Shown here: positions 7,671-64,000 of the stretch, in pieces
Numbering within the stretch: position 1 is the first letter of the stretch
How the letters are laid out: each line of letters begins with the position of its first letter
Notes under the pieces: generated by a model
Told to the model about the DNA's origin: nothing
Database searches by the model: none
Seen by the model: only the letters and a program-made list of their open reading frames with translations
Translations under genes and position numbers: made by a program
NCBI GenBank assembly: GCA_963805855.1
Contig: CAWDVW010000005.1
Coordinates: 1,022,297 to 1,086,296 of the forward strand
Length of the DNA: 64,000 nucleotides
Source of the DNA: Candidatus Dadabacteria bacterium
GTDB taxonomy: Bacteria; Desulfobacterota_D; UBA1144; Nemesobacterales; CSP1-2
Direction of reading: 5' to 3'

Positions 7671-9451
7671 TATCCCTCAGTCAAACTGCCGGGCGTCCTT
7701 GGATCGGATGCTCCGTAAAGGAAATCCCCAATTTTCACAACACTTTCGGTGCTACCAATCGTGTTCCCAATCAAAACCCTGTGTCCCATCTCCCTTAAAA
7801 GTCTCACAGCGTCCCCGTTTAATCCCTCCTCAACAACCACTTCATCCGGCAGCCACTGATGATGAACCCTTACCGCATTTGTGGCAGCAGCGATGTTCAT
7901 ATCGAAATCAACGACATTAAGAATAATTTGTAGCACAGCAGTTATAATCCTGCTCCCTCCCGGACTTCCGGTAATCAGATAAGGCTTGTTATCTTTCAAC
8001 ACTATCGTCGGTGTCATTGAACTCAACATTCTTTTCTCAGGCTCGATAGAATTGTACTCACCCCCTATAAGGCCATATGCGTTTGGCACCCCCGGTTTAG
8101 AAGAAAAATCGTCCATCTCATTATTCAATAAGATCCCCGTACCGGGAACCGTAAGCTTTGTTCCATAGCTGAAATTTAGGGTATAGGTATTTGAAACAGC
8201 ATTGCCATGTCTATCAATTACTGAAAAATGCGTGGTATCTACGCCCTCCTTATACCTGCCAGGGGTTCCAGGAGAGATTTTTCCGCTTGGTGTTGCCCTT
8301 TCAGTATTTAATTTCCTCTGCAGCTCGTTCGCATAGTCCTTTGATATCAATCCTGCCACAGGAACAGCAACGAAATCAGGATCTCCAAGATACTTAGATC
8401 TGTCTGCAAAGGCCAGTTTCATCGTCTCGACAAGCGTATGAATCGTCTTAGCAGTATTATGCCCATATAATCCTCTGGGAAATCTCTCAAGTATATTTAG
8501 CATTTGAATCAGATGCACGCCCCCTGAGCTGGGCGGAGGCATTGAATATATATCATATCCCCTGAAGGTACCATGAACAGGCTCACGAATGACAGGGGTA
8601 TAGGAAGCCAGATCTTCAAAGGTAATCAATCCACCATCTCCCTTCATATAATGAACGATTTTCTCAGCTATCTTTCCTTTGTAAAATGCATCCGCGCCAT
8701 TCTGCGCTATTTGTCCGAGGCTCCATGCCAAGTCTTTCTGTCGAAAGGCCTCCCCCTCATCATAAGATGCTCCCCCGTGCTTATAAAATATCTTCATGCT
8801 AGCAGTCGAAGCCATCATCCCATCCTTTACAGTTGTAAGGGATCTTTTAAGCTCCGAGTCCATTGGGAATCCTTTTTCAGCCAACTCGATAGCCGGCCGT
8901 AGGGCTCTTTCTAGGGAGATTGTGCCGTATTTATCGAGGGCCAACGCGAGCCCCGCCACGGTACCGGGAACGCCCACTGCCAGTAAACTGTGGAGTGACT
9001 TTTCACTATCGACATTTCCCTTCTCGTCTAGAAACATATCTCTTGATGCAGCCTTCGGAGCCCTTTCTCTATAATCGATAGCCACCACTTTTTTCGGATC
9101 GGCCATATAGATCAACATAAAGCCACCCCCACCCAAATTACCTGCTCGGGGAAAGGTAACTGCCAGCGTAAACCCAACAGTAACAGCAGCGTCGACGGCG
9201 TTTCCTCCTTCCTTTAACACCTGAAGACCAGCCTCTGTCGCGTACATATTCGCGGATGAGACCATCCCCTTCCTAGCTACGACAGGTTGAAAAATATCCT
9301 TCGGATCGTCGATGGGTAGTTCCTGGGCAGTTAACGCATTGGAAGCAAATAACAAAAGAAGAAATGCGATTACCAAAATCTTCTTCGCATGCATGGGATA
9401 TGGTTTAGTGTTATTTTTAATCATAATGAGGTTACTCAAATTATGAAACAT
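7667..9451 (-). CDS. ggt: Gamma-glutamyltransferase (exported precursor)
   Basis: GGNAVDAA, autocleavage TTHFS, LNNEMDDF, RMLSSMTP, GSPGGSRI; signal peptide after MHAKK (probable true start). Confidence 0.95.
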   Translation of the reverse strand: MFHNLSNLIMIKNNTKPYPMHAKKILVIAFLLLLFASNALTAQELPIDDPKDIFQPVVARKGMVSSANMYATEAGLQVLKEGGNAVDAAVTVGFTLAVTFPRAGNLGGGGFMLIYMADPKKVVAIDYRERAPKAASRDMFLDEKGNVDSEKSLHSLLAVGVPGTVAGLALALDKYGTISLERALRPAIELAEKGFPMDSELKRSLTTVKDGMMASTASMKIFYKHGGASYDEGEAFRQKDLAWSLGQIAQNGADAFYKGKIAEKIVHYMKGDGGLITFEDLASYTPVIREPVHGTFRGYDIYSMPPPSSGGVHLIQMLNILERFPRGLYGHNTAKTIHTLVETMKLAFADRSKYLGDPDFVAVPVAGLISKDYANELQRKLNTERATPSGKISPGTPGRYKEGVDTTHFSVIDRHGNAVSNTYTLNFSYGTKLTVPGTGILLNNEMDDFSSKPGVPNAYGLIGGEYNSIEPEKRMLSSMTPTIVLKDNKPYLITGSPGGSRIITAVLQIILNVVDFDMNIAAATNAVRVHHQWLPDEVVVEEGLNGDAVRLLREMGHRVLIGNTIGSTESVVKIGDFLYGASDPRTPGSLTEGY

Positions 9452-58178: not shown

Positions 58179-58427
58179 ATGTCTCAGGTGACGATGTACT
58201 CGACGACGTGGTGCGGTTATTGCCGGCGCCTGAAGCTCCAGCTCGACGCCGCCGGTGTGGCCTACGACGAGGTCAACATCGAGCGGGACCCCGAGGCTGC
58301 GGAGTTCGTCGAGAACGTCAACGGTGGCAACCGCACCGTGCCCACCGTGCGCTTCCCGGACGGCTCCGCGCTGACGAACCCCTCGATGGCGGAGGTCGCC
58401 GCCAAGCTGGACGCCCTCGCGGCATAG
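58179..58427 (+). CDS. mrx1: Mycoredoxin
   Basis: YSTTWCGYC, NGGNRTVPTV, DGSALTNPS; divergent from uvrD2. Confidence 0.9.
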   Translation: MSQVTMYSTTWCGYCRRLKLQLDAAGVAYDEVNIERDPEAAEFVENVNGGNRTVPTVRFPDGSALTNPSMAEVAAKLDALAA

Positions 58428-58477
58428 CACTCGCACCTACCTTCGGGGTCTCGCGCACAGGTTCTGCCTTATGTGGC

Positions 58478-59082
58478 TGCTCTTCTGACCGATCCGTGGG
58501 CGGTCCGAGCGGGGGTTGAGGGGCGCACGTCGCTCTGACGTCTAGGTTTCTGGCTTGTCGAGGGTCAGCAACCATGGACGAGGGACGACGTGCGCGGGGT
58601 CAGGCTATGGCGTGAGCTCCTTGGGGTCGAGCGGACGGTGATCGAGGACGTCGAGTTCGACCAGGGCACCGGGTGCGTGATCGCCCGGGTGCGCCCGAGG
58701 CGGGGGGCGCGGGGCCGCTGCGGGCGCTGTGGGTGCAAGGCTGCCGGCTATGACCGCGGGGAGGGTCGGCGCCGGTGGCGGGGGCTGGACCTGGGCACGA
58801 TCGAGGTGTGGTTGGAGGCCGAGGCGCCGCGGGTGAACTGCCCCGAGCATGGCCCGACGGTGGCAGCGGTGCCCTGGGCGCGTCACGGCGCCGGGCACAC
58901 CCGCGCCTTCGATGACACGGTGGCCTGGTTGGCGGTGCAGTGTTCGAAGACCGCGGTGTGTGAATTGATGCGGATCGCCTGGCGCACGGTGGGCGCGATC
59001 GTGGCCCGGGTATGGGCCGATACCGAACGCGAGCATGACCGATTCGCCGGGCTGCGCCGGATCGGGATCGACGAGGTGTCGT
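58478..59082 (+). mobile_element. ISL3-family IS, left end and 5' half of the transposase only (CDS from 58590)
   Basis: End-like TGCTCTTCTGA; zinc finger CGRC...CPEH, VPWARHG..HT, ends at RRIGIDEVS. Confidence 0.85.
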
Positions 59083-59170
59083 ATAATTATGCGGGTGATC
59101 TTGTCAAGGGGTTCAGCAGGATTTCCTTGGATCGATCTTGGTAGGGCTCGTGGGGAGTGTCCTCAGGACG

Positions 59171-60997
59171 TCAGGACGCCTCGTTGTCGAGTCGTTCGAG
59201 GATTCCGTCGAAGATTTTCTGTCGACCGACTTGGCCTTTGGCGGCGGCGTCTTCGCGTTGGCGCTGCAGGGTGGGCCTGAACTCGATGGTGGTCACGAAG
59301 AATGTGCAGGATTCGCAGATGGACTCGAAGTGGCAGTCCATCTCGACGGGGCGGGCGCAGTGGCCGTTGCCGAGCATGCGGCTGTTCATCTCCCGGCGGA
59401 GCTTGAGCATCTCAGCGCCCTCGGCGTCGGCCGGTAGGTGCGCCGCTCGGTCGTAGAGGGCCTCGACCTTCTCCGACACGGCGAAGTACTCGTCGGCGAC
59501 GGCGCGGTCGGCGATCTTCGCATAGACCATGGTCATCGTCATGGTGCGGTGGCCGAGTAGGGCGGCGATCGCCTCGAGTGACATGCCTCGGTTGATGGCC
59601 TGGGTGGCCAGTGTGTGACGCAGCTGGTGCGCGGTGATCTTGGCGATGCCGGCGGCGGCAGCGATCCTGGTCAGGGCCCGATCGACGCGGGCCGGCGGGA
59701 TGGGCCGCCCCCAATCCAGGAAGATCAGATCGGAGCGTAGGCCTGCGGGCCGGTCGGCCAGCCAGTCATCGAGCAGTGTCTTGAGCTGTGGGTGCAGCGG
59801 GATGTAGCGGTCGTTGTGCAGCTTGCCGACGGGGACTCGCAGCCAGTAGGCGGAGCCGATCTGCACGACGGCGTCGATGGTGAGCGCCATCAGTTCGCCC
59901 TTGCGCAGTCCGGTGCGTGCGAGCAGCTCGATGGCCAGGCGGGCGAAGGGGTCCGGGTCGGCTCGGGCCGCGCGCAGCAGCTTGGCCGAGGCGGCGTCAT
60001 CGAGGAAGCGGGGCAGCGGCTGGTCGGGGATGGGTAGGTCACCGGCGAAGATCAGCGGGCGCGTCGGCGCGTCGGGATAGTCCCATTCGGTGATCCGGTC
60101 GAAGAAGCACCGCAGCGTCGTGAGGTGCCCGCGGATGGTGTGGCGGTGCAGGGTGCCGCCACCGGCTCGGGGGCGGTTGGCGAGCCAGGACTTGTAGGCC
60201 TCGATGTGGTGGCGGCCGATGTCGCCGACGCAGCTCACCCCCGGTGCTTCGCGGGCCAAGAACGCGGTGAACTCGCGGAGCACCTGCTCGGCGATGCGCA
60301 CGGTCGAGGGCCGCAGGCTGAGCTCGAGCTGGGCGAGGTAGCGCTGCGCGGTCTCGGTCAGGCCGGGCGCGACGGCCGCCCACTGCGCGGTCGCGACGAC
60401 GCCCCGGTTCGGCCGGTGCAGCCGGGGTGGTGTGTCGGTCATCCCGGCGTGAAACAGCGTGGCGCGCAACCGGACCAGCGCGGAGCGCAGCTTGTGGCCG
60501 GCCTTGGGGTGCCCGGGGCGGGCGAACGCGGTGAGCAGAGCGTCGCCGCCGGAGTCGAGTTGCTCGGAGGTCACCTGCTCGGGAAGGACGCCGTGCAGCG
60601 CGGCCAGCTGTGCGAGCGCGGACCACTGGTCGCGCACCCAGACCTCGTCGGAGCCGAGCGTGCGCGCGGTGGCGGCGAGCCGGGCGCGCAGAGCGGGGTG
60701 ATGGCGGGCGGCGATGGAGCCCAGCCGAAGGTCGGCCCGTGCCAGGTACTCGGCCGAGACGCTCATCCTGGCGGTGACCATGAGCCAACACGCGAAGCGT
60801 CGCTGGTGGGCGGGCAGGCGTAGCTGCTCGTCGACCGGAAGCGCGGAAAACGCTGCGGGGACGGGGTATCGGGCGCAGAACGCCCGGGCTCCGCCGATGG
60901 TCGATGGCCACGTGCTCGCCCCGGCCTCGGTCAGTTCGGCGGTGAAGGCGCCCACCAGGTCCTCGGCCTGGGCGGTGAGGACGAGGCGGACGCTCAC
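59171..60997 (-). CDS. Large tyrosine recombinase with C-terminal Cys cluster (TnpB-of-Tn554-like)
   Basis: TGLR, GK, HQLRH, LLGH, Y catalytic set; NGHC..P...C....IC.SC.FF tail; start overlaps the upstream stop. Confidence 0.9.
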   Translation of the reverse strand: MSVRLVLTAQAEDLVGAFTAELTEAGASTWPSTIGGARAFCARYPVPAAFSALPVDEQLRLPAHQRRFACWLMVTARMSVSAEYLARADLRLGSIAARHHPALRARLAATARTLGSDEVWVRDQWSALAQLAALHGVLPEQVTSEQLDSGGDALLTAFARPGHPKAGHKLRSALVRLRATLFHAGMTDTPPRLHRPNRGVVATAQWAAVAPGLTETAQRYLAQLELSLRPSTVRIAEQVLREFTAFLAREAPGVSCVGDIGRHHIEAYKSWLANRPRAGGGTLHRHTIRGHLTTLRCFFDRITEWDYPDAPTRPLIFAGDLPIPDQPLPRFLDDAASAKLLRAARADPDPFARLAIELLARTGLRKGELMALTIDAVVQIGSAYWLRVPVGKLHNDRYIPLHPQLKTLLDDWLADRPAGLRSDLIFLDWGRPIPPARVDRALTRIAAAAGIAKITAHQLRHTLATQAINRGMSLEAIAALLGHRTMTMTMVYAKIADRAVADEYFAVSEKVEALYDRAAHLPADAEGAEMLKLRREMNSRMLGNGHCARPVEMDCHFESICESCTFFVTTIEFRPTLQRQREDAAAKGQVGRQKIFDGILERLDNEAS

Positions 60998-61998
60998 AGC
61001 CGCACCGACTGCGCCTCGATCGCCTCGGCCGCGCGCAGATACTCCCCGGCCAGCCAGTCGTTGGCCAGGTGAAGGTAGATCCGGGTCGACTCGATCGACG
61101 CGTGCCCAGCCTGGGCCTGGACGGCTTCCAACGCCATCCCCGCCTCACGCAGCCTGGTGAAACAGGTGTGACGGAGCTGGTGGCACGTCAAGTGCTCCAG
61201 GCCGGCCCGTCTCCTGGCCCCGTCGACGATCTCGTCCAGCCCGGCGGCCGAGAGCGGCCGGCCCCGCCGTGGCCCCTTCAGCACGACGAAGACCCGTTCG
61301 GTGCCGCAGGTTCGTGGGCGTTCGGTGTCGTAGTAGGCCGCGACGGTGGAGAAGAACCGGGCCGAGACCGGCACGATGCGCTGTCGGCCACCCTTGCCCT
61401 CGGCGACGAACACCCGCCGCTCGCCCGGCCGCAGGTCGGGCAGCCGCAAACCGAGCACCTCGCAGCGCCGCAGGCCACCGAGCAACATGGCCTGGGCCAT
61501 CGCCCGATCCCGGTGCGTGCGCAGCGCGGCCAGGAAAGCCTCGACGTCCGCCGGTTCGAGCACCCGCGGCAGCGTGCGCGGCGCTCGGATCAAGGGAACG
61601 CCCCGCACCCCGGGGCGGCTGCGTCGTCCCCGGGTGGCCAGGCCGCGTGGGACCGGGTTGGTCGCCACCCCGCTATCGCCCCGGGCCACGAGATAGTCGA
61701 ACAACCCGGACACGCTGGCCAGTCGACGCTTGATGGTACGGGCGGACAGGCCCGCCTCGCCGTCCTCCAGCCGCACCACCCCGCGGCCGCGGCGAGGAGC
61801 GCGCTGGGACTTGATGAACCCCAACACGTCCGCGGTGGTGACCTCGGCCGGTTGCTTCACCACCTCGGTGAAGAAAACCTTGAGGTCATAGGCCGCGGCC
61901 AGGAGCGTATTCGGACGAGCCCGCGCGGCGACGAATTCGAGATAGTCGTCGAGCAACGGATGACCGAGCATGACGGCCCGAAGCTCGTTGCCCGACAT
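60994..61998 (-). CDS. Tyrosine recombinase (TnpA-of-Tn554-like); start uncertain
   Basis: SAM-like N-terminal domain, GGLRRCE, GKG, HQLRH, AGH, IY catalytic set. Confidence 0.9.
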   Translation of the reverse strand: MSGNELRAVMLGHPLLDDYLEFVAARARPNTLLAAAYDLKVFFTEVVKQPAEVTTADVLGFIKSQRAPRRGRGVVRLEDGEAGLSARTIKRRLASVSGLFDYLVARGDSGVATNPVPRGLATRGRRSRPGVRGVPLIRAPRTLPRVLEPADVEAFLAALRTHRDRAMAQAMLLGGLRRCEVLGLRLPDLRPGERRVFVAEGKGGRQRIVPVSARFFSTVAAYYDTERPRTCGTERVFVVLKGPRRGRPLSAAGLDEIVDGARRRAGLEHLTCHQLRHTCFTRLREAGMALEAVQAQAGHASIESTRIYLHLANDWLAGEYLRAAEAIEAQSVRL

Positions 61999-62103
61999 CG
62001 TCTTGATCAGGCTGGAAATCACGGACAAGAGGGGTCTCCGCTCGCGAGGCCCGACACCGGCGAACGGCGGCGGGTCGACGGTCAAGATCACCCTCATATC
62101 ATG

Positions 62104-62605
62104 AGGAGATCTCGTCGATCCCGATCCGGCGCAGCCCGGCGAGGCGGTCGGTGCGGGCGGCCCGCTCGGCCACCACCCGGGTGACGATGTCGGCCACGCT
62201 GCGCCAGGCCACCCGCAGCAGCATCGCGACCACCGACAGGGTGGCGTGGCAGACCAGCCACGCGGCGGTGTCTTCGAAGGCGGTGGTGAACCGCGCCCCG
62301 GGCCGCGCCCAGGGCACCGCGGCGACCACCACCCCGTGCTCCCGGCACCTCACCCGCGACGTGGTGGCCTGCAGGTACACCTGGGTGGTGCCCAGGTCCA
62401 GGCCCCGCCAGCGCCGCGGGTCCGGGCTGGTGTCATAGCCCGGGCAGCGGCGCTGGCAGCGTGAACAGCGCCGCGCCGCGCCGGCCTTGACCCGCACCCG
62501 AGCCAGCAGCACTTCCTGGCCCCGGGCGTCGGTCTCCAGGTCTACCGACTCGATCACCGTGTGCTCGACCCCGAGCACCCGACGCCATAGCCTCGTGGTG
62601 CGCAC
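62104..62605 (-). pseudogene. Second, different ISL3 transposase, 5' half only
   Basis: CSRC...CREH, VPWARPG.RFT, ends at RRIGIDEIS; its upstream region shares TGAGGGGCGCACG with the left ISL3. Confidence 0.88.
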
Positions 62606-62716
62606 GCCGCGTCTCCGTCTTCGTCTCTGGTCGTGGAAACCCAGAGCTGAAGACAGGCTGGCGTGCGCCCCTCATTCCACAATCTTTACCGGCGGCCACC
62701 TACCCGCCGGAGGTTC

Positions 62717-62842
62717 GGGGGCGCTGCGCACCAGCCGGGCAGGCCCCCGGCCTGCCCGCAAGCCCTGCCCGAAGGGGCCGCAGAGGCTCGCAGGTCCAGG
62801 GGGGCGCGCAGCGCCCTCGCGTAGCGACGCCGCAGGCGCCCT
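62717..62842. other. Multi-hairpin GNA-triloop element (ssDNA-structure-like), interrupted by the intron
   Basis: AGGG[GGGCGC-GCA-GCGCCC][TCGC-GTA-GCGA][CGCC-GCA-GGCG]CCCT at 62798-62842, plus a 10-bp hairpin at 62736-62758. Confidence 0.6.
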
Positions 62843-64000
62843 GTGCGACACGAGGTCGCACAGCACAAGTGAACTCATTGAACTGGAGGTTTGGCTGATG
62901 CCGAGGATGTAGTTCCGAGCCAGTGCTCAAGGCTCGTCCCTGTCCTGGCGGGCGTCGTGGGTAACCGCGGGGTCCGAAGCCCAGGGTGAAGCCCAAGGGT
63001 CCCCGTCCCATCCGGGGGCTACAGGCGAGGGGAAGACCGGACGGGTGAAGCACGTAAACCCTCGCTGATGTCTCGTTAGCGCGACCCCCGTCAGATGGGA
63101 TGGTTTTAGCGGGGTACAGGACTGGCCGCTAGAGAAGGCGGCGGGTGCCGGCTGGTGAAGGGCGTCCAGCCGGGAGAGCACCACCGTCCCGGGATAAAGA
63201 GGGCACCCACCCCGGTCGATTCTTGTGCGTGTGGAACGTGGGAACCCCGCCGGGTCCCCGCCGCTATTTGGCGGGGTAAGCCGACCGTAAGGAAGGCCAA
63301 CTCCTTTTGGCGGGAACAGGATGCCCAAGAAGCAAATGCCGGTGGCCGAAAGGCGACAGGAAACCACGGGCGATACGGCTACACCTCCAAGTGGCCGCCC
63401 ATGGATAACTGGCCGGATACCGGACCTGTGGGCCGGACCCGAAAAGGTTGCTGACGTGGGCAGGTGAGCCTTTGAAGGACTAACGCAGGTGACCTCCGGA
63501 ACCGAAGGACAAGTTGGACACATGACGGGATACTCCTTCTCCACCCCAGCGGTGGCGACGGGCGCCCTGAACGTGAACGGACCCGAGGACGAGGCCCCCG
63601 ACTGGGACGCCATCGACTGGCGCGCCCACGAGGGCCGAGTACGGCGGCTACGGCGAAGGATCTTCAAGGCGACGCAGGAGCAGGACTGGGCCAAGGTCCG
63701 GTCCCTGCAGAAGATGTTGCTGCGGTCCTGGTCGAACACGCTGGTCAGCGTGCGCCAGGTGACCCAGCGCAACGCTGGCCGCACGACCGCCGGGGTGGAC
63801 GGGGAGATCGCGTTGACTCCCGCCCGCAGGATGGAGGTGGCGGTGCGCGTGCACCGCACCATCTCCTCCTGGCAGCCCCTGCCGGTCAAGCGGGTGTACA
63901 TACCGAAGGCCAATGGGAAACAGCGCCCACTCGGCATTCCGGTGATCATGGACCGGTGCCATCAAGGGCGGGTCCGCAACGCGCTGGAACCCGAATGGGA
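62843..64000 (+). mobile_element. Group II intron (5' part; runs off the window)
   Basis: 5' GTGCG; EBS1 AGGGCG (63159-63164) in a hairpin loop is complementary to exon end CGCCCT; RT ORF follows. Confidence 0.88.
63522..64000 (+). CDS. ltrA: Group II intron reverse transcriptase/maturase (3' partial)
   Basis: My translation: W..IDW...[12 protein letters not shown]...N.G..TAGVDG...[17 protein letters not shown]...DR..Q....ALEPEW. Confidence 0.93.

Follow-up and report, generated by a model that had tools for sequence, protein, structure and literature searches.

A two-recombinase transposon related to Tn554 beside ISL3 transposase genes, and the insertion sites of its relatives

Why should a small unit with two recombinase genes and no cargo lie between two broken transposase genes, and is the place of the break a matter of chance? 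The question is raised by a stretch of 64,000 nucleotides from Candidatus Dadabacteria bacterium (assembly GCA_963805855.1, contig CAWDVW010000005.1, positions 1,022,297 to 1,086,296), which is called the window here. It holds a unit of 3011 bp at 59088–62098, measured repeat to repeat, that encodes two tyrosine recombinases and is flanked on each side by part of a transposase gene (tnp) of the insertion sequence (IS) family ISL3. The original prediction, made from the letters of the window alone, took it for an element that inserts into ISL3 tnp at a fixed site and that differs from Tn554 and from the RIT elements. We hold with good confidence that the unit is a cargo-free transposon moving by tyrosine recombination, that it belongs to the TnpC-less class related to Tn554, that its clade is site-specific for ISL3 tnp, and that the copy in the window is a secondary product.

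The insertion site in ISL3 transposase genes

Relatives were collected by searching one-genome-per-species contigs with the protein of the long recombinase, TnpB; this gave 168 relatives, and the best 80 loci were retained. The ISL3 clade as used here comprises the window element and the loci L010–L023 and L083 (16 elements), with TnpB 67–99% identical to that of the window in the best tblastn segment. In a quick tree of the long recombinase (67 rows; those with short flanks are unlabelled, and a few of the ISL3 labels were assigned by hand) 14 members of the clade are grouped together with an SH-aLRT of 99. Thirteen elements have ends with at least 20 nt of flanking DNA, and all 22 of these ends adjoin ISL3 tnp at one and the same codon boundary, with the codons GIDE(I/V)(S/K) on one side and Y(R/K)(K/R)G on the other (opposite strand). 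The remaining five ends have flanks of 9 nt or less. The far-side flanks match the catalytic domain DDE_Tnp_ISL3 from profile position 8–9 (5.4e-47, 7.4e-50 and 6.7e-44), and begin at position 135 of 370 in the NCBIfam model of ISL3. In the complete insertions tnpA, the gene for the short recombinase, lies beside the N-terminal half of the transposase gene in three cases (L015, L018, L023) and in the opposite orientation in four (L017, L020, L022, L083). When the element and one copy of a 2-nt repeat are removed in silico, the ISL3 frame is open through the motif in all seven. Judged by comparison of these loci, the clade is shown to integrate site-specifically at the start of the catalytic domain, in either orientation, and to sever the transposase after its DNA-binding part; the fixed site that had been proposed from the window is borne out by this tabulation.

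At the tnpA end, the hexamer TCATGA (or TGATGA) is found in 12 of the 13 clade members that have this end in the contig, whatever the flank. In the window it lies at 62099–62104, read on the minus strand, and is borne by the element; it recurs at the tnpA end of relatives. At the other end, the bases AAT (59085–59087) stand between a Tyr codon of the left ISL3 gene and the repeat, like the tnpB-side junction TAC AAT^TATG of L017 and L020 (the caret marks the boundary here and below). The junctions had been described as carrying two different 5-bp spacers, with the variable coupling sequences of Tn554 and Tn916 named beside them. The spacers do differ, but they are not paired coupling sequences: CATGA is part of the constant TCATGA, and ATAAT is the remainder of the Tyr codon followed by AAT.

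Three of the loci (L010, L011 and L012) are contigs 98–99% identical to the long recombinase of the window that are binned in metagenome-assembled genomes (MAGs) labelled as three different phyla. As these contigs are only 1.7–3.4 kb long, mis-binning of a repeat is likelier than a real host range.

A near-identical element is also present in sequencing runs of 14 studies, mostly of soil metagenomes, although the best-matching run may be the window's own sample. Four runs were compared with the window, all as contigs, in which rare forms are not detectable. In these, identity to the window breaks at 59087 and at 62104–62107, and beyond the breaks the C-terminal half of ISL3 is found, either at the tnpB end (run X1) or at the tnpA end (runs X2 and X12). 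Runs X12 and X2 also contain uninterrupted ISL3 across the insertion site, that is, empty sites. A joint in X1 that appears to connect opposite strands (59026/62142) is explained by the inverted arrangement of the ISL3 halves.

The element and its copy in the window

The unit is bounded by terminal inverted repeats of 18 nt. The repeat at the tnpB end (RE, 59088–59105) reads TATGCGGGTGATCTTGTC and includes an outward-facing TTGACA, which is retained across the family; the repeat at the tnpA end (LE, 62081–62098), with the reverse complement TATGAGGGTGATCTTGAC, matches it at 16 of 18 positions. Relatives with as little as 50% TnpB identity still have the repeat core TATG[N][A/G]GGTGA at their ends. 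Between the repeats, on the minus strand, lie a tnpB-like gene for the long tyrosine recombinase of 608 amino acids (59171–60997), recognised from its open reading frame (ORF), Pfam and alignment to Xer-type recombinases, and a tnpA-like gene for the short one of 367 amino acids (60994–62097), whose ATG (62097–62095) is inside the terminal repeat. The overlap of the two genes is 4 nt (GTGA). As tnpB ends (59171) only 65 nt from the repeat (59105), no space is left for cargo or a third gene, and no co-oriented ORF of at least 60 amino acids was found between the repeats beyond tnpA, tnpB and the frames overlapping them, nor any TnpC-like gene. The description of a cargo-free 3011-bp unit with two overlapping recombinase genes and 18-bp terminal repeats therefore stands, and both junction strings quoted in the original prediction were found exactly as given.

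Both proteins match Phage_integrase in Pfam (5.8e-32 and 2.9e-27) and have SAM-like core-binding domains; in NCBIfam they match only generic Xer and integron models, far under the cut-offs. In alignments with Xer-type recombinases of solved structure, both proteins carry the Arg, Lys, His-x-x-Arg, His and Tyr motifs (in the long protein RxxE, K, HxxR and H...Y), which we take to be the catalytic set, and judging by this alignment both recombinases are apparently active. The long recombinase consists of an N-terminal helical domain (residues ~1–190), a core-binding domain, a catalytic domain and a C-terminal Cys/His cluster. The N-terminal domain is predicted to be all-helical, with confidence, in an AlphaFold model, and a Foldseek search with the full-length model returned the generic recombinase fold only. 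The C-x7-C-H-x4-C-x2-C cluster, which follows the catalytic Tyr (window 59171–59360), was found unchanged in all 30 aligned relatives, and no other part of the protein is as well conserved; AlphaFold confidence is low there, and the cluster is probably a zinc site. Conservation is uneven along the long protein: between clades its first ~300 residues (the N-terminal and core-binding domains) are 30–48% identical, and its catalytic and C-terminal parts 70–89%. The short recombinase is the more conserved, with 64–78% identity as against 50–60% for the long one.

The flanks of the unit belong to two different ISL3 copies. On the left (ISL3-L), the 5' part of a transposase gene runs on the plus strand from 58590 to 59084, up to the codons GIDEVSY (PF14690 1.1e-12, PF13542 9.2e-16). 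On the right (ISL3-R), the 5' part of another runs on the minus strand (62105–62605) up to GIDEIS (PF13542 5.3e-13, PF14690 1.5e-09). Both thus encode Zn_ribbon_ISL3 and HTH_Tnp_ISL3, lack the catalytic domain, and are ~70% identical over ~520 nt in inverted orientation. Outside them, the outer terminal inverted repeats of the two ISL3s (58517–58542 and 62649–62674) pair with each other over 26 nt with 77% complementarity. The likeness of the two copies ends at GACGAG GTG TCG T in one and GACGAG ATC TCC T in the other, as had been claimed for two divergent ISL3 genes cut just after GIDE(V/I)S. It was also claimed that there is no target duplication, and no direct repeat longer than 2 nt was found around the 3011-bp unit; the 8 nt outside the outer ISL3 repeats differ as well, with no shared target duplication. 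By comparison with relatives, ISL3-L retains two extra ISL3 bases (a TAT Tyr codon), and the two cuts lie 3–4 nt apart in ISL3 coordinates, as expected of two insertion orientations. The window tnpA junction, TCC^TCATGA^TATG in ISL3-R, is of the orientation type of L015 and L023, and the tnpB junction, TAT AAT^TATG in ISL3-L, is of the type of L017 and L020. The open frame of ISL3-L continues into the element up to 59144. On the other side, TCATGA supplies the TGA that closes the truncated ISL3-R frame, 1 nt ahead of the tnpA ATG (TGA-T-ATG).

It is worth noting that both flanks are N-terminal (5') halves facing inward, and that the window holds no 3' half. The host assembly (3.1 Mb in 9 contigs, 94% complete) contains a single copy of the element and gives no match to DDE_Tnp_ISL3 (PF01610) anywhere, so that the flanks are truncated remnants and not complete ISL3 insertion sequences. 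For these reasons the copy in the window is something other than a simple insertion in a single IS. Site-specific insertion into ISL3 thus holds for the clade, but the copy from which it was first proposed has a rearranged order of N-half, element and N-half. We infer that it is the result of a secondary rearrangement or, less likely, of misassembly. The rearrangement could have come about by recombination between two copies of the element inserted in opposite orientation in two ISL3s, or by recombination of a second ISL3 site with the tnpB end of a single copy; given sites in direct order, either route would remove the intervening DNA and with it both catalytic halves.

In L010 (1–3429) an element 99% identical to that of the window has an ISL3 C-half on either side, the two halves being near-identical and inverted with respect to each other; it is without the TCATGA hexamer and forms the mirror image of the window arrangement. 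The genome of L017 (G120), a complete chromosome, contains one element and two intact ISL3 DDE genes. At C1:898058–898795 it has in addition, with no element adjoining, a match to the ISL3 DDE domain from profile position 8 onward, which may be an orphan C-half from a rearrangement like that in the window.

Misassembly would mean that the targeting is real and that the window joins two ordinary opposite insertions in two ISL3s through their shared 3-kb repeat. Each window junction taken alone is of a normal type, the locus lies 1.9 kb from the end of contig C5, which ends in another repeat (a group II intron), and no contig in the four metagenome runs joins the left flank of the window to the element. 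Two such copies would, however, leave two ISL3 C-halves, and the assembly has one element copy and no DDE_Tnp_ISL3 match. Contigs of up to 1 Mb suggest reads able to span 3 kb. The mirror form, C-half, element and C-half, is found in the independent contig L010, and its atypical junction cannot be made by switching paths in a 16-nt repeat. We consider a chimera of this kind unlikely, and prefer the rearrangement.

To the right of ISL3-R there is only ~170 bp of unique DNA, followed by a group II intron (window 62843–64000; Rfam group-II-D1D4-7 at 62916–63000, 34.3 bits) with a reverse-transcriptase N-domain ORF (63489–63998) that extends past the contig end. This repeat is probably the reason that the contig stops there. 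A neighbouring helicase gene, looked at in order to tell deletion from inversion by synteny, is only 35–38% identical in three of five relatives and was not found in the two genomes of the same genus.

The wider family, its targets and a possible mechanism

Among the retained loci, 108 ends could be defined by motif, of which 9 have less than 40 nt of flank. The other 99 were classified by motif rules, checked on representatives with Pfam and NCBIfam; a classification by the longest abutting ORF or by third-position GC had been dropped, as it chose antisense frames in high-GC DNA. The rules assign 80 of the 99 ends to one of five gene sites, and 10 more were placed by eye at the IS21 site, reading (L/F/Y)GG^TATG. 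Beside the ISL3 site (GIDE(I/V)(S/K) and Y(R/K)(K/R)G), the family inserts in the C-terminal W^(Y/F)N..R.H of IS3-type rve transposases, at the end of IS3 OrfA after LK(K/R)AA, in IS21 IstA at (F/L)GG^(V/A)P, and after the LLGH codons of a sister element's long recombinase. Representative sites are matched in Pfam by rve, rve_3, HTH_Tnp_1, HTH_21 and Phage_integrase. The N-terminal parts of IS21 are missed by Pfam and recognised by NCBIfam, where two separate clades are both cut at IS21 profile position 176 of 294; the IS3 profile is cut at positions 81 and 351 of 369. In the 67-row tree the target classes do not mix: each has one or more clades of the long recombinase to itself. The claim that ISL3 is the target accordingly holds for the clade, but the targeting of the family is wider than ISL3, and from these sites the family looks like parasites of other mobile DNA. 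One nested case is L041 (5093–10802). Here an IS3-type transposase gene is broken at W^YN by one two-recombinase element, and the long recombinase gene of that element is in turn broken after its LLGH codons by a second one (end at 8480). The LLGH junction was also seen in L073 and in the plasmid locus L091.

These regularities could in principle reflect a preference for a short DNA word (YCC^TAC or TGG^TWC) and not for IS genes, with numerous and dispensable IS genes merely being the place where insertions survive and insertions in essential genes being lost. The element and its target share only 1–2 nt at the crossover, and the ISL3 and IS3/rve insertion points both precede a T(A/T)C codon. 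A 6-nt word, however, occurs thousands of times per genome, while in the ISL3 clade all 22 informative ends share a single codon boundary in a single gene family, every clade keeps to one site of its own, and the nested LLGH insertions (L041, L073 and L091) are equally precise. It is very improbable that a short word alone explains this. Least credible of all is that the ISL3 halves belong to the element, as a composite of ~4.16 kb (58517–62674) moved by ISL3 transposase in trans: the outermost 26 nt are ISL3-type inverted repeats, and two inverted ISL3 left ends would be a formal substrate for the transposase, but there is no direct repeat outside the ends (the 8 nt there are mismatched), the halves are only ~70% identical, the identical 3-kb core occurs with other flanks and breaks exactly at 59087 and 62104–62107, relatives have an N-half on one side and a C-half on the other, the genome has no ISL3 transposase, and none of the best 80 loci contains a 4.16-kb unit with two N-halves and an 8-bp duplication.

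If the 3-kb unit itself is the transposon, its junctions suggest how it might move. The inserted DNA usually consists of a clade-specific hexamer (TCATGA, TGATGA, TCACGA, TCAGGA or TTTGGA), the element from repeat to repeat, an A and one variable base; this can equally be read as a pentamer, the element and an A, plus a 2-nt duplication N-T. Within a clade the hexamer does not vary. In 8 of 25 complete insertions the base that follows CATAA on the tnpB side is not that of the target, and it could be a donor footprint of 1 nt. Other forms also occur: the hexamer is at the tnpB end in L013 and lacking in L010, and a clade of Streptomyces in IS21 has its extra 5 nt at the tnpB end, all of which fit alternative resolution of an unmatched crossover region. 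The products of tnpA and tnpB would excise the element as a circle, in which the repeats GATCACCCRCATA and TATGRGGGTGATC would face each other over a spacer of ~8 bp that includes TCATGA. Repeats facing across ~8 bp are the layout of a tyrosine-recombinase core site. The circle would then recombine with an ISL3 site that agrees with the crossover region in only 1–2 nt (N-T). As almost none of the ~8-bp spacer matches the target, the crossover region would be unmatched, which can be likened to the non-homologous coupling sequences of Tn916. As to the division of labour, it is probably the short recombinase that binds the conserved ends, and choice of the target probably falls to the long one, since the short protein is the more conserved and the N-terminal half of the long one varies between clades; choice of the target by the long protein has been shown for the Tsy transposons (PMC10293859).

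Expression may depend on the host IS. The space before tnpA is too small for a separate promoter, and a promoter scan found none upstream of tnpA within the element. The sole promoter-like match in 58400–62800 is weak (9 of 12 matches); it lies at the tnpA end (62075–62102, plus strand) and faces outward into the ISL3-R half, antisense to it. With no space for a promoter and with tnpA starting 1 nt behind the ISL3 stop, it is probable that tnpA on the right side of the window is transcribed from the IS and translationally coupled to it. In the circle, the outward TTGACA would be placed 17 nt from CATGAT by the tnpA start, so that a junction promoter is possible, though speculative.

A number of points weigh against this account. 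The loci were found with the window's own protein, 80 of the 168 were retained, and many are short MAG contigs and near-copies, for which reason the counts for the clade and the family are not independent events. Nine of the 99 ends were left without a class; in one of these the motif probably matches by chance. Of the 25 complete insertions compared by eye, only 17 have flanks that match at both of the 2 nt, and in the others T alone matches; a computed list of element-removal pairs flags 18 of 29 as the same. No circle junction or excision product is seen among the joints listed for the four metagenome runs, where contigs cannot show rare forms. The order of N-half, element and N-half is known from one assembly, near the contig end noted above, and the metagenome contigs do not bridge 59087 to the left flank of the window. 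A DNA search of the 4.2-kb region in 60 relatives of the host returned nothing, and in a protein search with the ISL3-R half in 120 genomes (class scope, window genome included) the window genome was the sole match. The parts played by the two proteins, the circle and the coupling of tnpA to the IS are steps that we infer. Two members of the clade also contain more DNA than expected. In L014 (8363–9144) ~740 bp without a recognisable repeat lie between the tnpB end and the ISL3 N-half, and in L019 (8–3951) the element is 3944 bp long, ~930 bp longer than its relatives; the extra DNA may be cargo or a further insertion.

A broader reading can be put forward tentatively, with the balance tipping slightly against it. 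It holds that the whole TnpC-less two-recombinase family consists of obligate parasites of mobile elements, that each clade homes to one conserved motif of a transposase or recombinase gene, and that the N-terminal half of the long recombinase, which evolves fast, determines the target as an exchangeable selector. The ISL3 clade would then borrow the promoter and frame of the IS and leave behind a transposase stump of 166 amino acids with only the DNA-binding part, which could inhibit the remaining IS copies. If the findings hold, they would define ends, crossover region and targets for a little-studied class of tyrosine-recombinase transposons, in the form of a two-gene, 3-kb system that is directly testable. 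They would describe mobile elements that exploit other such elements and inactivate them at the codons that are most conserved, which bears on the control of IS loads, and would make these codons a safe, multicopy and horizontally travelling landing site. Retargeting from clade to clade, with a conserved catalytic core and a variable N-terminal half, would amount to a natural series of target-selector swaps. In current annotation the genes are called only tyrosine-type recombinase/integrase, and the broken IS halves are unannotated.

Relation to known systems

The class itself has been published, and the window element is, by the likeness of its proteins and gene order, a member of it. Van Houdt et al. 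(2012, Mob DNA 3:6, PMC3414803) describe TnpC-less pairs related to Tn554 in actinobacteria, in which a short recombinase of ~350 amino acids (Famint36) and an "abnormally long" one of 611–828 amino acids (Famint41) are adjacent, co-oriented and present in multiple identical copies; the similarity to Tn554 proteins is given there as "data not shown". The window pair is likewise adjacent, co-oriented and without TnpC, with a long protein of 608 amino acids that is 3 below the published range. One of the copies listed in their Table 2, on pREL1 of Rhodococcus erythropolis PR4 (NC_007491), encodes a long protein 53.1% identical to residues 40–608 of that in the window (E 4e-152 in tblastn; 94% of the window protein). 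This copy (L090) has the repeat core of the window at both ends and lies in an IS3 orfA. The original prediction, which set the element apart from Tn554 and the RIT elements, is to be amended in that its class is already described. Its target is another matter: the sections of the 2012 paper on these pairs give neither ends nor target, and ends, junctions and clade-wise IS-gene targets are defined here. No description of IS-gene targeting by the TnpC-less class was found in the literature, with subscription journals and supplementary files outside the search, and such targeting appears to be undescribed.

In Tn554 of Staphylococcus, TnpA, TnpB and TnpC are all required, whereas the window element has neither TnpC nor cargo; it has clear terminal inverted repeats, and its target is a multicopy gene of mobile elements and not att554 (PMC10214605). 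Tn554 carries a 6-bp footprint of the donor, taken from its left flank to the new right junction, and makes no target duplication, according to the same source, while in the window family no 6-bp rule is apparent: members of a clade share the hexamer, and only 1–2 nt vary. The unmatched crossover proposed here resembles the footprint of Tn554 and of the SE elements (PMC10214605).

A functional parallel may be found in the Tsy transposons (Faure et al. 2023, PMC10293859), which encode a tyrosine recombinase, a helix-turn-helix protein and an active, TnsF-like long recombinase, and which have a circular intermediate. In these, too, a short and a long recombinase are both needed and insertion takes place in the codons of a conserved motif (Walker B of comM), with the long protein choosing. 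As in Tsy, both recombinases of the window appear catalytically competent from the alignment of their Xer-type motifs. The differences are that Tsy has the helix-turn-helix gene between the recombinase genes, which in the window overlap and leave no room for one, that the window element has no GIY-YIG gene, and that the target is comM in Tsy and transposase genes here. The long Tsy protein, as described there, has N-terminal zinc fingers, whereas residues 1–200 of the window protein contain two Cys and no zinc-finger cluster, its Cys/His cluster being C-terminal.

The RIT elements, with the three recombinase genes ritA, ritB and ritC as against two in the window element, and the SE/GInt elements, with four genes, are also small transposons that move by tyrosine recombinases only, but their end structures are different from those of the window element. 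One SE element is inserted in insJ of IS3 (PMC10214605).

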